Below, piece by piece: positions 47,227-60,440 of a DNA stretch of 64,000 nucleotides (position 1 is its first letter; the number at the start of each line of letters is the position of its first letter). The DNA comes from Candidatus Levybacteria bacterium RIFCSPHIGHO2_01_FULL_40_16 (lineage in GTDB: Bacteria; Patescibacteriota; Microgenomatia; Levybacterales; UBA12049). The DNA lies in assembly GCA_001783805.1 (NCBI GenBank), contig MFNS01000001.1, positions 192,649 through 256,648 on the forward strand. The letters are read 5' to 3'. A program made the position numbers and the translations under genes. Below the pieces are notes generated by a model, which ran no database searches, was not told where the DNA came from, and worked only from the letters and a program-made list of their open reading frames with translations.

Positions 47227-47502
47227 ATGTATAAAGTTTATTTATTGCATAGCCTAAAAGACACAGGGATGTCTTACGTTGGATTAACAATTAAGGAAAT
47301 AGACAAGAGAGTTGAAGAACATAATAAAGGACTATCACAATATACAAAAACATTTAAGCCGTGGAGATTAGTTTATTACGAACTTTTCTATTGCAGAACA
47401 TGTGCCGAAAAAAGAGAACAATTCTTGAAAAGTGGAGTAGGATATCAATTAAGAAAACATCTGCTTACATTTAAGAATTCTTCTTTGAAGAACGGGGGTT
47501 AG
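47227..47502 (+). CDS. small GIY-YIG nuclease; stop overlaps outer tRNA-Pro
   Basis: VYLLHS...SYVGLT...RVEEHN...AEKREQFLKSG. Confidence 0.9.
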   Translation: MYKVYLLHSLKDTGMSYVGLTIKEIDKRVEEHNKGLSQYTKTFKPWRLVYYELFYCRTCAEKREQFLKSGVGYQLRKHLLTFKNSSLKNGG

Positions 47503-47516
47503 CTCAGTTGGCTAGA

Positions 47517-47559
47517 CCTGCCCGCAATTGCCTGGAGCCGATAGCGACTGGCAGGCGGG
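47517..47559 (+). mobile_element. empty 43-bp mini-element in D-arm of outer tRNA-Pro
   Basis: CCTGCCCG...GGCAGGCGGG. Confidence 0.85.
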
Positions 47560-47572
47560 GCGCGCGGTTTGG

Positions 47573-47681
47573 CCCGCCTGACTTGAAATGACGGGGTGTA
47601 GTTCATCGGTAGAACGCTCGGTTTGGGACCGAGAAGCAACAGGTCCAATTCCTGTCACCCCGACAAGTCATTTCGGGCAGG
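47573..47681 (-). mobile_element. 109-bp tRNA-Pro-carrying mini-element in anticodon loop
   Basis: CCCGCCTGACTTG...[tRNA]...CAAGTCATTTCGGGCAGG. Confidence 0.85.
47592..47663 (+). tRNA. inner tRNA-Pro(TGG)
   Basis: CGGGGTG...CTCGG-TTTGGGA-CCGAG...ACAGG-TCCAATT-CCTGT...CACCCCGA. Confidence 0.88.
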
Positions 47682-47777
47682 GACCGTGAGGTCGGAGGTT
47701 CAAATCCTCTACCCCCGACCAAGTTGAGTTTTTATGTGCTAAAATTGAAGTAGTTTACTTCGGATAATTAAAGCGGG

Positions 47778-47812
47778 CCTGCCCGCCGAAGTTCCGAAGG
47801 AACGTAGGCGGG
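47778..47812 (+). mobile_element. empty 35-bp mini-element whose end regenerates the tRNA-Gly 5' end
   Basis: GCGGG|CCTGCCCGCCGAAGTTCCGAAGGAACGTAGGCGGG|TGTAG. Confidence 0.8.
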
Positions 47813-47878
47813 TGTAGTTTAATGGCAGAACACGACTTTTCCAAAGTCGATACGAGGGTTCGATTCCCTTCACCCGCT
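47808..47878 (+). tRNA. tRNA-Gly(TCC)
   Basis: CGACT-TTTCCAA-AGTCG anticodon arm; GCGGGTG/CACCCGC acceptor. Confidence 0.93.
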
Positions 47879-48018
47879 CAGACACGAAAGGTATTGACAT
47901 ACTCCGATATATATGTCTTACTAGTATAAAGACCCGCCAACGCTCGCGTTTCGGCCTTCGGCTCGACGAAGTTAGTCTACGGCCAGACGAAGTCGGCGGG
48001 CAAGAAGGAGGTGATAAC

Positions 48019-57590: not shown

Positions 57591-57636
57591 TTCTTCAGAC
57601 GGAGAGGAAATCATTGACCGACTTGGCTACCTCGGC
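57591..57636 (-). pseudogene. 5' remnant of a tRNA-Phe
   Basis: GCCGAGGTAGCCAAGTCGGTCAA...CCGTCTGAAGA; no 3' half found. Confidence 0.65.
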
Positions 57637-57729
57637 ATGTATAAATGCTGTTGCTAGAATAATGTTAACTACCCAATGTCCTATTATTTACTAAAGCATG
57701 TATCTTTTACAAAAATTATTTATACATGC

Positions 57730-57987
57730 CTAGGCATGATCATTCCAGTCTTTTAATCTTTTCCGCAAATAACTTTTGCCCAAACGAGTTTTGAGATATT
57801 TTTCTCTACGATAAGCATCAATTTCGCTTAGGCTGGCTTCGTAGTATATTATATCAAATGGAGCATATGGGCTGGTAGACTTAACCATTTTCTCATTATG
57901 CTCTCTAAATCTTCCTCTTAAATCATTAGTACATCCTGTATACAGAAATTTTCTGGACGTACTTTTTAAAACATAAACGTAAAACAT
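57730..57987 (-). CDS. small GIY-YIG nuclease directly 3' of outer tRNA-Val
   Basis: MFYVYVLKS...LYTGCTNDLRGRFREHN...AYRREKYLK. Confidence 0.9.
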   Translation of the reverse strand: MFYVYVLKSTSRKFLYTGCTNDLRGRFREHNEKMVKSTSPYAPFDIIYYEASLSEIDAYRREKYLKTRLGKSYLRKRLKDWNDHA

Positions 57988-58041
57988 CTTGTGGACTCTA
58001 GAGGATTTGAACCTCTGACATCTTCGATGTAAACGAAGCGC

Positions 58042-58150
58042 CCGGCCTGACTGGACTTTGTGGACCCGAGAGGATTCGAACCTCTGACCTTCTCAGTGTA
58101 AATGAGACGCTCTACCAACTGAGCCACGGGTCCATTCAAAGTCGGGCAGG
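58042..58150 (-). mobile_element. 109-bp tRNA-Val-carrying mini-element in D-arm
   Basis: CCTGCCCGACTTTGAAT-[tRNA]-CAAAGTCCAGTCAGGCCGG. Confidence 0.85.
58061..58133 (-). tRNA. inner tRNA-Val(TAC)
   Basis: GGACCCG...TCTCA-TTTACAC-TGAGA...GGTTCGAATCC...CGGGTCCA. Confidence 0.93.
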
Positions 58151-58196
58151 TCTACCGCTGAGCTAAGAGTCCAGGGTGGACTTAATGATGTCCAGA

Positions 58197-59321
58197 TTGA
58201 ACCAATTATAGCAGATTTTGAGAGGCTAAGGTTAGCTTTTCAACTTAATTACCATTAGAGAATAGAAATTCAGTAATCCTGGTTTGGGATATTTATACCT
58301 TATCAACGGGTTTAGGATTTATTATTATAACCTGTAATTTGTCGAATAAGTTTGTTAGTGAGGGGTCTTCCGGGCCATTACCTTCAATAAAGGAGCTATA
58401 CGTTTGTGATTTTTCGTCCCATTCTATATTTCCATGGGGCAAGTCACGACCTAGAATTGAATAGAAAATATATAATTTTTTTTGAGTATCTGGTCTAGAA
58501 ATCGTTTCGAGCCACCTTTCATCCCTGTCATCCGACGATTCATATCCAGAGTGATACGTAGATGTATTTTCATGTTTAAATTTGTAGTCAGGATGACCTT
58601 TTAGAAATTTTTCAACTGCCGTTTTAATCCTATCTCCTACCGGTTTTGTCGGATCATCTTCGGGGTCGTCTTTTTCTGCATTCAGTTTCAATTTTTCTGG
58701 GCTCATCCGTCTAACTTCGTCAAGTGTAAATTTTTGGTTTGGTGCAGCGTAAGCTTCCAGAATTTTGTTAGCACACATCTCATCTAGAGCAAATGGACCA
58801 TCAAAAGACTCATCATTTAAATATGAGCCTTCTATCCATGTTCTATGTGAAATAACTGCCCATTCATTTCTATTTTTAACCCAAATAAAGATCAATTCAT
58901 AATCCTCATTCATTACTGCTAATCGTTCTCTTTTTATTGAGATAGCAGAATGACCTAAAACGGCCGTTTCTTGAGCGGGTAATCTCATTAAGGAATCGTA
59001 TTCCTTGGTTACCCATGGCGGGAGAGTGGAAAAGGTTGCATTTTCAGAAATTTGGATAATATTATCTCCATAAGAGCTGGTGTCTGGTCTACTTCTTACC
59101 CAATCACTCTTGCCAAAATTAATTTCAATTATCTTTTCTCGCTCTTCAGTCATTTCTGGGGGAATTATATTACCATAAGTTTTGAAAGTCAAATCATTCC
59201 TTGTCGCACAAGCTTTATTGAGACGTGGTTTTAAAGCTAAACAGCGTCATATACATACTGGTGGGCTTAGCGATGCTCAACTTGAACCAATTATAGCAGA
59301 TTTTGAGAGGCTAAGGTTAGC
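58197..59321. repeat. perfect 40-bp direct repeat containing an extended -10 element, flanking a hypothetical gene
   Basis: TTGAACCAATTATAGCAGATTTTGAGAGGCTAAGGTTAGC at 58197-58236 and 59282-59321. Confidence 0.9.
58293..59192 (-). CDS. hypothetical protein (start uncertain)
   Basis: 299-aa acidic ORF; no motif recognised. Confidence 0.6.
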   Translation of the reverse strand: MTFKTYGNIIPPEMTEEREKIIEINFGKSDWVRSRPDTSSYGDNIIQISENATFSTLPPWVTKEYDSLMRLPAQETAVLGHSAISIKRERLAVMNEDYELIFIWVKNRNEWAVISHRTWIEGSYLNDESFDGPFALDEMCANKILEAYAAPNQKFTLDEVRRMSPEKLKLNAEKDDPEDDPTKPVGDRIKTAVEKFLKGHPDYKFKHENTSTYHSGYESSDDRDERWLETISRPDTQKKLYIFYSILGRDLPHGNIEWDEKSQTYSSFIEGNGPEDPSLTNLFDKLQVIIINPKPVDKV

Positions 59322-59350
59322 ATTTGACAAGATAACTTGCATGAATTCAT

Positions 59351-60123: not shown

Positions 60124-60156
60124 AAGTATAAATTCTTAGTGCCCAGGGGGAGATTC

Positions 60157-60198
60157 CCTGCCCGCCATCAGCTGTCGCCTCAGGCGACTGCAGGCGGG
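60157..60198 (+). mobile_element. empty 42-bp mini-element in T-loop of outer tRNA-Leu
   Basis: CCTGCCCGCCATCAGCTGTCGCCTCAGGCGACTGCAGGCGGG. Confidence 0.85.
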
Positions 60199-60242
60199 GA
60201 ACTCCCAAGCCCTTGCGGACACAGCGTTCTGAACACTGCATG

Positions 60243-60351
60243 CCCGCCTGCCAGAGTGCCCCAAGAGGGACTCGAACCCTCACGTCCTTGCGGACACAGC
60301 GTTCTGAACACTGCATGTCTACCATTCCATCATCGGGGCACGGCGGACAGG
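60243..60351 (-). mobile_element. 109-bp tRNA-Leu-carrying mini-element in D-arm
   Basis: CCTGTCCGCCGT-[tRNA]-CTCTGGCAGGCGGG. Confidence 0.85.
60257..60339 (-). tRNA. inner tRNA-Leu(CAG)
   Basis: GCCCCGA...CAGTG-TTCAGAA-CGCTG...GGTTCGAGTCC...TTGGGGCA. Confidence 0.92.
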
Positions 60352-60440
60352 TCTACCATTTCATCACCTGGGCGCATGTTGATTTTACCAGAAGCAGTTT
60401 TACTTGACAACAATGACAAAAAATGCGATTATGATAGACA

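Follow-up and report, generated by a model that had tools for sequence, protein, structure and literature searches.

Among the elements described so far, those closest to the one analyzed here are transposable elements of the miniature inverted-repeat type (MITEs), mobile insertion cassettes, repetitive extragenic palindromes (REPs) and Rickettsia palindromic elements (RPEs), all of them likewise short, gene-less, present in high copy and provided with complementary ends. In mobile insertion cassettes, the transposon ends enclose a passenger. As to tRNA genes, integrase-borne genomic islands insert into them and carry a replacement 3' end, while archaeal and eukaryal tRNA introns lie at 37/38 and at D- and T-arm positions and are related across genes; split or permuted tRNAs are also known. 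The subject of this work is a tRNA-Val(UAC) gene, the shell, that is interrupted by a hairpin-ended cassette holding a complete second tRNA-Val(UAC), the cargo. It lies in a stretch of 64,000 nucleotides from Candidatus Levybacteria bacterium RIFCSPHIGHO2_01_FULL_40_16 (contig MFNS01000001.1, positions 192,649 to 256,648 of the forward strand), called the window throughout. The reading favored below, which is held to be probable, is that a native tRNA-Val gene was split by the cassette, the carried copy being likely the working gene and the shell likely a dead relic.

Compared with a MITE, the terminal inverted repeats are present in an imperfect form (8/10 match) and the target-site duplication is absent. 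RPEs are reported to occur in frame inside housekeeping genes (PMC10969869), and the empty, cargo-free members of the present family likewise often lie in frame within such genes and tend to measure a multiple of 3 within open frames. What sets this family apart from palindromic repeats is that 8-nt ends with fixed mismatches are kept across many Patescibacteria lineages, that the passenger is a tRNA gene, and that copies with a passenger are confined to tRNA genes of that passenger's kind. Its likeness to genomic islands is that of a mobile element that targets a tRNA gene and brings sequence preserving tRNA function. Unlike islands, however, a complete replacement gene is nested in the target, there is neither an integrase nor an att-type direct repeat, the element measures about 100 nt, and the insertion points are the D arm or the anticodon loop rather than the 3' end. 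In contrast to archaeal and eukaryal introns, the insert is found in a bacterium and holds a whole tRNA, and the interrupted gene decays in relatives. Two further systems involve GIY-YIG nucleases, a gene of which adjoins the shell. T4 SegB is a free-standing GIY-YIG homing endonuclease that resides in a tRNA gene cluster and recognizes a conserved tRNA-gene motif (PMC2330249), and the Ssn proteins are small GIY-YIG single-strand nucleases paired with NTS/SRM hairpin repeats and linked by the authors of their report to natural transformation (PMC11893778).

The nested tRNA-Val locus

Coordinates are those of the window unless a contig is given; G000 denotes the genome of the window and the other G numbers its relatives in the order. 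The shell extends over 57992-58172 on the minus strand and the 109-nt insert over 58042-58150. The insertion bond is Sprinzl 23/24 (between A23 and G24), on the 3' strand of the D stem and after linear position 22. From 5' to 3', the parts are:

58151..58172, minus strand: shell 5' half, 22 nt ending in TAGA, with the 5' strand of the acceptor stem, the 5' strand of the D stem, the D loop, G22 and A23
58134..58150, minus strand: left arm of the cassette; its conserved 8-nt end is CCTGCCCG and its inner arm includes GACTTTG
58061..58133, minus strand: cargo, a complete tRNA-Val(UAC), called by ARAGORN as tRNA-Val(tac) at 58060-58133 (Rfam, 76.4 bits)
58042..58060, minus strand: right arm of the cassette, with the inner arm CAAAGTC and the end CAGGCCGG
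57992..58041, minus strand: shell 3' half, 50 nt, with G24 and C25, the anticodon arm, the variable loop, the T arm, the 3' strand of the acceptor stem and the discriminator A57992

An earlier reading of this DNA (the original prediction) had described a tRNA-Val shell with a cargo element at the D-arm site GGTAGA^G, at about 23/24 (^ marks the insertion point). This was borne out by in-silico excision of exactly 109 nt, which yields an ARAGORN tRNA-Val(tac) spanning the junction. The cargo is a full tRNA that shares the anticodon of the shell (UAC) and obtains the top Rfam tRNA score in the window, while the 3' part of the shell alone scores as a partial tRNA (58000-58057, 32.1 bits). The right end CAGGCCGG equals the family end CAGGCGGG with one mismatch and is unique in the window. 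The flanks GACTTTG and CAAAGTC do pair around the cargo in the predicted fold, as had been proposed: folded as DNA, the insert reaches a z of -3.7 with 0/200 shuffles as good, and shell plus insert folded as RNA give a predicted cloverleaf nested within a cloverleaf (-70.7 kcal/mol, z -4.2). Each side of the junction is covered by independent Logan contigs that show no difference (X4, 57623-58088 and 58088-58226; X14, 57618-58079; X20, 58062-58226). When contigs of four metagenome runs were aligned to the locus, none skipped the Val cassette; apart from one contig at the Leu cassette (see below), the joints were cross-matches between tRNA genes.

The evidence that the shell is the resident gene comes from relatives, in which the ancestral operon reads Leu(CAG)-Leu(GAG)-Val(UAC)-Phe-Gly-Gln. 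G059 carries an uninterrupted tRNA-Val in this operon, and G041, from the genus of G059, holds a Val cassette at the same 23/24 bond, with shell halves (23 + 50 nt) identical to the G059 gene. As judged by comparing these sequences, the pair of an empty and a filled site shows that the shell is the native tRNA-Val gene and that the insertion is a DNA event. In-situ duplication was rejected as a general origin of the cargo, because the shell of G041 equals the native gene of G059 and the G041 cargo differs from it. Shell-cargo identity reaches up to 98% at one locus (L032), from which it follows that gene conversion between shell and cargo does occur.

The fate of the parts differs markedly among relatives. 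The nested Val layout is also found in G034, from another genus, and in partial form in G001, G002 and G006, which belong to the genus of G000, as well as in G008. Compared with G000, the cargo is identical at 71, 72 and 72 of 73 positions in G001, G002 and G006, respectively, while the shell 5' half matches at 19/22 in G001 and 18/22 in G002, and the left arm at 14/17 in G002. The right arm and the entire shell 3' half have been lost in G001 and G002, the shell 5' half and the left arm in G006 and G008, and the shell of G034 has an aberrant anticodon loop (5-nt or odd). Since halves of the shell are lost while the cargo is conserved, the shell is not being spliced back together. The arms are evidently dispensable once the cargo is in place. 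The conservation of the cargo against the decay or deletion of shell and arms in relatives of the same genus suggests that the cargo is likely the working gene, which would now supply tRNA-Val(UAC), and that the split shell is likely a dead relic.

The composition of the genome is to be seen alongside these data. Bacterial genes are present in the sequence, among them an ORF that by eye resembles trigger factor. G000 comprises 897,674 bases in 7 contigs and is 98.9% complete; genome-wide ARAGORN finds 45 tRNA genes with every anticodon once, and Val(tac), Val(cac), Leu(cag) and Pro(tgg) are present solely as cargo copies. G003, of the same genus, has an uninterrupted tRNA-Val (L010, 1502-1574) that combines the acceptor stem of the G000 shell with the anticodon and T arms of the G000 cargo; it is either an un-invaded native gene or a collapsed nest.

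The cassette family and its target sites

The Val cassette is a member of a family with the conserved ends CCTGCCCG...CAGGCGGG that inserts without target duplication. In G000, a GC-rich hairpin of 33-48 nt with these ends is present in about three dozen copies, and in its terminal stem one T.G pair and one C.A mismatch are fixed. The 14-nt left arm is not a window-wide repeat (6 matches at no more than 3 mismatches versus 2.7 expected, not significant); the family is defined by its 8-nt ends and not by the left arm. Across the order, 245 genomes were searched with exact 8-nt ends for the long form CCTGCCCG-N85-115-CAGGCGGG and for the empty form, with a gap of 16-34. The empty form is present in 107/245 genomes and the long form gives 66 matches in 45/245; a reversed-pattern control in the 245 genomes gave 0 matches for both forms. 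ARAGORN finds a complete tRNA in 53 of the 63 distinct long elements. Together with the Val and Leu cassettes of the window, whose ends have one mismatch, this makes 55 cargo cassettes representing 23 tRNA species.

In all 55 cassettes the flanks align locally to the cargo over 16-75 nt (less than 30 nt in five of them; in L062 the alignment does not span the junction), and this flank-cargo alignment placed none of the cargo cassettes elsewhere than in a tRNA gene or relic. A single excision gives an ARAGORN shell call in 34/53, 29 of the 34 with the anticodon of the cargo; by alignment, shell and cargo anticodons agree in 48/55 and two cases are not scorable. The cargo is always co-oriented with the shell (55/55), while the arms lie either way (36 CCTG-first, 19 reversed). 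Cargo-bearing members are thus found only inside tRNA genes homologous to the cargo, on the same strand and nearly always matching in anticodon. This match between cargo and shell is a rule that goes beyond the original prediction. Two loci are exceptions that could show cross-identity insertion: in L034 (G034:C37) a Thr(CGU)-like shell holds a Val(CAC) cargo, and in L030 (G038:C5) an Ile(GAU)-like shell holds one of Val(GAC).

The empty members behave differently. The set examined consists of 93 empties, 80 from relatives (taken in listed order) and 13 from G000, and none of the 93 sits in a tRNA restorable by excision. Where the empties of G000 touch tRNA sequence, they do so only in the cargo-holding Pro and Leu shells and in Asn and Arg relics that adjoin a replaced gene. 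This contrast between cargo-bearing and empty members is what would remain after selection in genomes whose tRNA genes are single-copy, since an insertion into such a gene persists only when a substitute accompanies it. Within open frames their length is a multiple of 3 in 28/32 cases (59/93 overall), which indicates that they are translated and not removed. In agreement with the lack of target duplication, exact excision of the element restores the tRNA, and among the 93 empties 64 have no flanking direct repeat and 17 have one of 1 nt. Several empties in relatives lie within short A/T-rich tandem repeats, where the same 7-nt unit continues in both flanks.

As to the insertion site, the original prediction proposed a preferred TAGA target in the D arm. 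Its matching D-arm sites, that of the Leu cargo (GGTAGA^) and that of an empty insert in tRNA-Pro (GCTAGA^), are indeed present and CCTG-first. Over the 55 cassettes, D-stem 23/24 is a recurrent hot spot with 16 (13 CCTG-first, 3 reversed), and 13 of these 16 sites read TAGA^. However, the anticodon loop (after positions 33-37) is used more often, by 36/55, and the remaining cassettes lie at D-stem 10/11 (2/55) and in the T loop (1/55). Among the empties, TAGA is the commonest left flank (7/93 versus a genome frequency of 0.0031; binomial P 2e-8). A lack of enrichment of TAGA or D-arm targets in a larger set, the outcome that had been named as refuting, was therefore not found. The other 86/93 empties have different left flanks, and the 93 as a whole show a weak GA^ preference, with A at -1 in 50/93 (T in 7/93) and G at -2 in 34/93. 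D-arm TAGA^ is thus a true but second hot spot, and TAGA is not required. As for the supposed CCTG-first orientation, it holds for all four hairpin insertions at D-arm TAGA^ in G000 (Val, Leu, Pro and an Arg relic at C7:169585), but not for the three reversed D-arm cassettes of the order.

At the phylum level, a scan for TAGA plus cassette with one genome per species covered at least 120 loci and gave at least 122 matches. At least 46 of them hold a tRNA, and for at least 23 of these ARAGORN calls a shell with that tRNA's anticodon; the remaining 76 among the matches listed come from GC-rich genomes, hold no cargo and are chance matches. The cargo matches listed are labeled as Saccharibacteria, Moraniibacteriota/Moranbacteria, Parcubacteria, Paceibacteria, Doudna-, Kerfeld-, Nealson-, Taylor- and Amesbacteria, Levyibacteriota and unclassified Patescibacteria, and a few bear other labels. 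In viral contigs, TAGA plus cassette gave 2 matches, neither with a tRNA.

Besides Val(UAC), three further shells were found in G000, and in all four the anticodon of the cargo is that of the shell (Val UAC, Leu, Pro, Val CAC):

60140..60373, minus strand: tRNA-Leu(CAG) shell, with a cargo cassette at 60243-60351 (tRNA-Leu CAG) at D-arm 23/24, GGTAGA^
60157-60198: empty reversed hairpin in the T loop of the Leu(CAG) shell
47493..47718, plus strand: tRNA-Pro(UGG) shell, with an empty hairpin at 47517-47559 at D-arm 23/24, GCTAGA^
47573-47681: reversed cargo cassette in the anticodon loop of the Pro(UGG) shell, carrying tRNA-Pro UGG
C1:148968-149079: fourth shell, Val(CAC), with the insert at 37/38

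For ARAGORN, a single excision restores neither the Leu nor the Pro shell, because each holds two inserts; both were read by eye. The Leu shell and its cargo have an identical central stretch. One X4 metagenome contig skips 60242-60350 (109 nt, the Leu(CAG) cassette), with 23 nt on one side and 85% likeness; it could represent a community allele whose site is empty, or DNA of another organism. A 35-nt family hairpin (47778-47812, plus strand) ends inside tRNA-Gly(UCC) at 47808-47879, its last 5 nt being the first 5 of the acceptor stem.

Origin of the nested gene and competing explanations

Several observations bear on how the cassette reached the Val gene. The G000 shell is a mosaic, with the acceptor stem of the native gene of G003 (same genus) and an anticodon arm of the type of G059 and G041, from another family. 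This anticodon arm differs from that of G003 at 4/5 pairs, all of them complementary, which is not expected of random decay and points to recombination. The exchange of sequence between shell and cargo, seen in the identical central stretch at the Leu locus and in the 98% identity at L032, points the same way. One Val arm family occurs at 23/24 with Val(TAC) in G000 and G034, and in the anticodon loop with Val(CAC) in G000 and Val(GAC) in G095; similarly, one Pro arm family carries TGG or CGG. In the Val and Pro families alike the cargo matches its own shell each time. Since these isoacceptors differ only at position 34, point mutation of the cargo together with selection would suffice to account for the anticodon match.

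On these grounds, the following mechanism is proposed. The cargo would be transcribed from the promoter of the shell and freed by the usual enzymes of tRNA processing. Because the cassette both destroys an essential single-copy gene and replaces it, it would make itself indispensable. Its movement may involve two layers: rare founding insertions carried out by a putative enzyme that recognizes the folded ends, and the lateral spread of the cassette with its adjoining shell into the orthologous gene by homologous recombination. At the Val locus, the cassette probably arrived by homologous recombination with DNA of another lineage.

Cargo is never found outside tRNA genes while empties mostly are, so that plain transposition plus selection is insufficient and there is room for cargo-dependent targeting. 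A bolder version, which we put forward tentatively, regards the cassettes as a Patescibacteria-wide gene-replacement drive in which a protein-less element of ~100 nt would destroy the resident gene, enforce dependence on itself and turn over tRNA genes horizontally throughout the phylum. The target, a tRNA gene of the same kind as the cargo, would then be found possibly through homology between cargo and target or through annealing of transformed single-stranded DNA, a route in which the short arms of the shell would be kept next to each other by the GC clamp.

A different origin, judged unlikely, is fresh single-strand transposition, in which a Y1 transposase of the kind found in IS200 and in REP-associated tyrosine transposases (RAYTs) would have pasted the folded cassette with its cargo into the D arm. 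The precise insertion without target duplication fits with this idea, the conserved T.G and C.A mismatches of the terminal stem argue for recognition of a folded strand, and one arm family is found at two different tRNA positions. G000 does encode a Y1 protein (within locus L021, C4:17214-20483; 234 aa, PF01797 at 44.6 bits), and PF01797 is present in 13/13 hairpin-rich versus 6/13 hairpin-free genomes (Fisher P 0.005), in groups chosen by exact-pattern counts whose members are kin and not independent. However, whereas a RAYT gene is flanked by its own repeat, 0/7 of the Y1 loci examined are flanked by the tRNA-cassette family: in G000 and G244 the gene has another palindrome on both sides, which in G000 is the same perfect 29-31-nt sequence at either end. 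Nor is there the fixed 4-5-nt target 5' of the left end that characterizes IS200/IS605, TAGA being commonest at just 7/93 and the preference being a weak GA^ alone. In addition, plain transposition does not predict that cargo cassettes are confined to tRNA genes. Beside the Y1 gene of G000, a ribosomal protein L1-like open reading frame (ORF) contains two in-frame CCTGCCCG-family hairpins of 47 and 39 nt.

The original prediction also implied a role for the GIY-YIG gene that follows the shell. Homing by this nuclease would consist in cutting the empty tRNA-Val at or near TAGA^GC, after which repair would copy the filled allele, immune because its site is split. The two GIY-YIG ORFs of interest are:

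57730..57987, minus strand: GIY-YIG ORF of 85 aa (Pfam PF01541, E 2e-14, residues 1-71), on the same strand as the tRNAs
47227-47493: second GIY-YIG ORF, which runs into the first bases of the Pro shell

As had been stated, the first ORF starts 4 nt (CAAG) after the discriminator A57992. It is one of 11 paralogous loci in G000 (tblastn), at least 7 of which lie in tRNA operons, on the tRNA strand, and 3/11 lie within 120 nt of a hairpin element. Homing also finds a precedent in SegB and its tRNA-gene motif, the likeness consisting in a GIY-YIG gene amid tRNA genes and in the selfish replacement of one version of a tRNA region by another (PMC2330249). The mosaic shell would fit with repair accompanied by co-conversion. 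Nevertheless, the link to the cassettes is not general. A GIY-YIG ORF is found within 200 nt at 0/45 phylum-wide TAGA^ cargo loci among the matches listed, within 300 nt at 2/27 order loci and within about 1.5 kb at 6/32. The nested Val loci of G034 and G041 lack the ORF, its closest ortholog (G005, 80% nt identity) follows a protein gene instead of a shell, and three tRNA loci carry both GIY-YIG and hairpin against about 1.6 expected if independent, by a rough hand tally. Differences from SegB are also evident, as the cassette encodes no protein, a GIY-YIG neighbor is exceptional and the protein is a bare catalytic domain without a visible DNA-binding module; SegB is larger and has a DNA-binding part. 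Homing is accordingly considered doubtful, even more so than Y1 transposition.

What the GIY-YIG gene does share with free-standing homing genes is its domain and its presence or absence between conserved neighbors. It occupies the formerly short spacer between the Val shell and a tRNA-Phe relic, and in G014, G021 and G028 Val and Phe lie 2-26 nt apart with no ORF between. NCBIfam gives nothing above its cut-off for the protein, and its weak matches are a PHROGs homing endonuclease (E 0.006) and, as the best solved relative in PDB, a UPF0213 protein (E 0.07). The gene is best taken as a selfish, free-standing nuclease gene in its own right that lies in the tRNA operon, in a position comparable to that of T4 segB (PMC2330249), and not as a component of the cassette. 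A resemblance to Ssn also comes to mind, since small single-domain GIY-YIG proteins occur here in a genome peppered with an oriented hairpin repeat. Yet the SRM motif, as given in the Ssn report (PMC11893778), occurs 0 times in G000 (0-3 in shuffles), 0 times within 500 nt of the 11 GIY-YIG genes and in 0/13 hairpins.

That the insert acts at the RNA level, being removed as an intervening sequence so that the shell halves are joined and the locus gives two tRNA-Val, is very improbable. It is true that the G000 shell forms a perfect cloverleaf, that the paired ends of the insert bring the shell halves together and that many cassettes lie at or next to 37/38, the canonical intron site. But no bulge-helix-bulge is possible, since the insert ends pair with each other, and the predicted fold of shell plus insert shows no 3-nt bulges flanking a 4-bp helix. 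The tRNA splicing endonuclease (PF01974) and RtcB (PF01139) gave 0 matches in the 98.9%-complete G000, while the controls were found in 4 and 10 of 14 reference genomes, respectively. Group I introns are usually >200 nt and sit in the anticodon loop; an insert of 109 nt in the D stem is too small for one, and in the window no Rfam ribozyme or intron was matched, as 18/18 gathering-level matches are tRNA. Furthermore, relatives have lost a shell half yet retain the cargo, and family members in coding genes preserve the reading frame. Finally, an assembly chimera of two tRNA-Val genes is hardly credible, because, even though tRNA repeats break short-read contigs and the X4 contigs end at 58088 inside the cargo, the same nesting recurs complete or partial in the six relatives named above, exact contigs from four runs cover each junction and the order holds 55 analogous loci.

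Some observations weigh against the preferred reading of a native gene split and replaced by its cassette. The shell of G000 is intact, with 21/21 stem pairs Watson-Crick when read by eye, and in this genome it could conceivably still serve after some RNA processing. The anticodon of the shell differs from that of the cargo in 5/55 cassettes (L003, L023, L030, L034 and L052). The counts rest on exact 8-nt ends and on ARAGORN, and many of the 55 are related copies rather than independent events, while the import by recombination is read from few informative sites in 72-nt genes. GIY-YIG genes are, moreover, ~five-fold commoner near cassettes than genome density predicts (6/32 versus roughly 1 expected), and a looser link between the two may exist.

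Operon neighbors and significance

The surroundings of the Val locus contain further features:

58175..58240, minus strand: leader or promoter-like stretch directly upstream of the shell, ending 3 nt from it
About 57636-57580, minus strand: decayed tRNA-Phe relic that keeps the start of the acceptor and D arm and the GAA anticodon-loop region
57547-57110, minus strand: HNH endonuclease ORF (phrog_2255, E 2.9e-32)
57109-57036, minus strand: intact tRNA-Phe, starting 1 nt after the stop of the HNH ORF

The promoter-like match lies at 58243-58215 (minus strand), and a comparable stretch precedes the empty tRNA-Val of G059. The leader stretch has a second copy at 59260-59325, 88% identical, which makes a 66-nt direct repeat. 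The two repeats bracket a 299-aa ORF (58293-59192, minus strand) with no Pfam, NCBIfam or PHROGs match, an arrangement that looks like a gene cassette inserted into a tRNA leader. On the other side of the locus, the tRNA-Phe relic, the HNH ORF and the intact tRNA-Phe constitute, as their sequences read, a second and different replacement event in the same operon.

In the full-text literature searched, subscription journals excepted, no account turned up of hairpin cassettes that nest one tRNA gene inside another. A study of insertions in rRNA genes of the candidate phyla radiation (CPR) mentions neither tRNA nor hairpins, and a 2024 review of MITEs mentions tRNA 0 times. What is contributed here comprises the empty and filled Val pair, the relative rates of cargo, arms and shell, the order-wide statistics of sites and identities, the contrast between cargo-bearing and empty members and the mosaic shell, together with negative tests of the GIY-YIG, Ssn, Y1 and splicing readings.

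These results matter because tRNA genes are usually held to be stable and vertically inherited, whereas here, in genomes where each anticodon has a single gene, they undergo repeated invasion and replacement by tiny cassettes without protein genes. For annotation the results hold a warning, as tRNA finders see the cargo alone, while the shells go unnoticed or are taken for introns. The persistence of fixed mismatched 8-nt ends from Saccharibacteria to Levybacteria points to a putative conserved enzyme that would recognize folded DNA. If the proposed mechanism is true, the cassettes would represent selfish DNA in a minimal form, able to persist because it renders itself essential, and they would provide a route for the horizontal exchange of tRNA genes among uncultured ultra-small bacteria.

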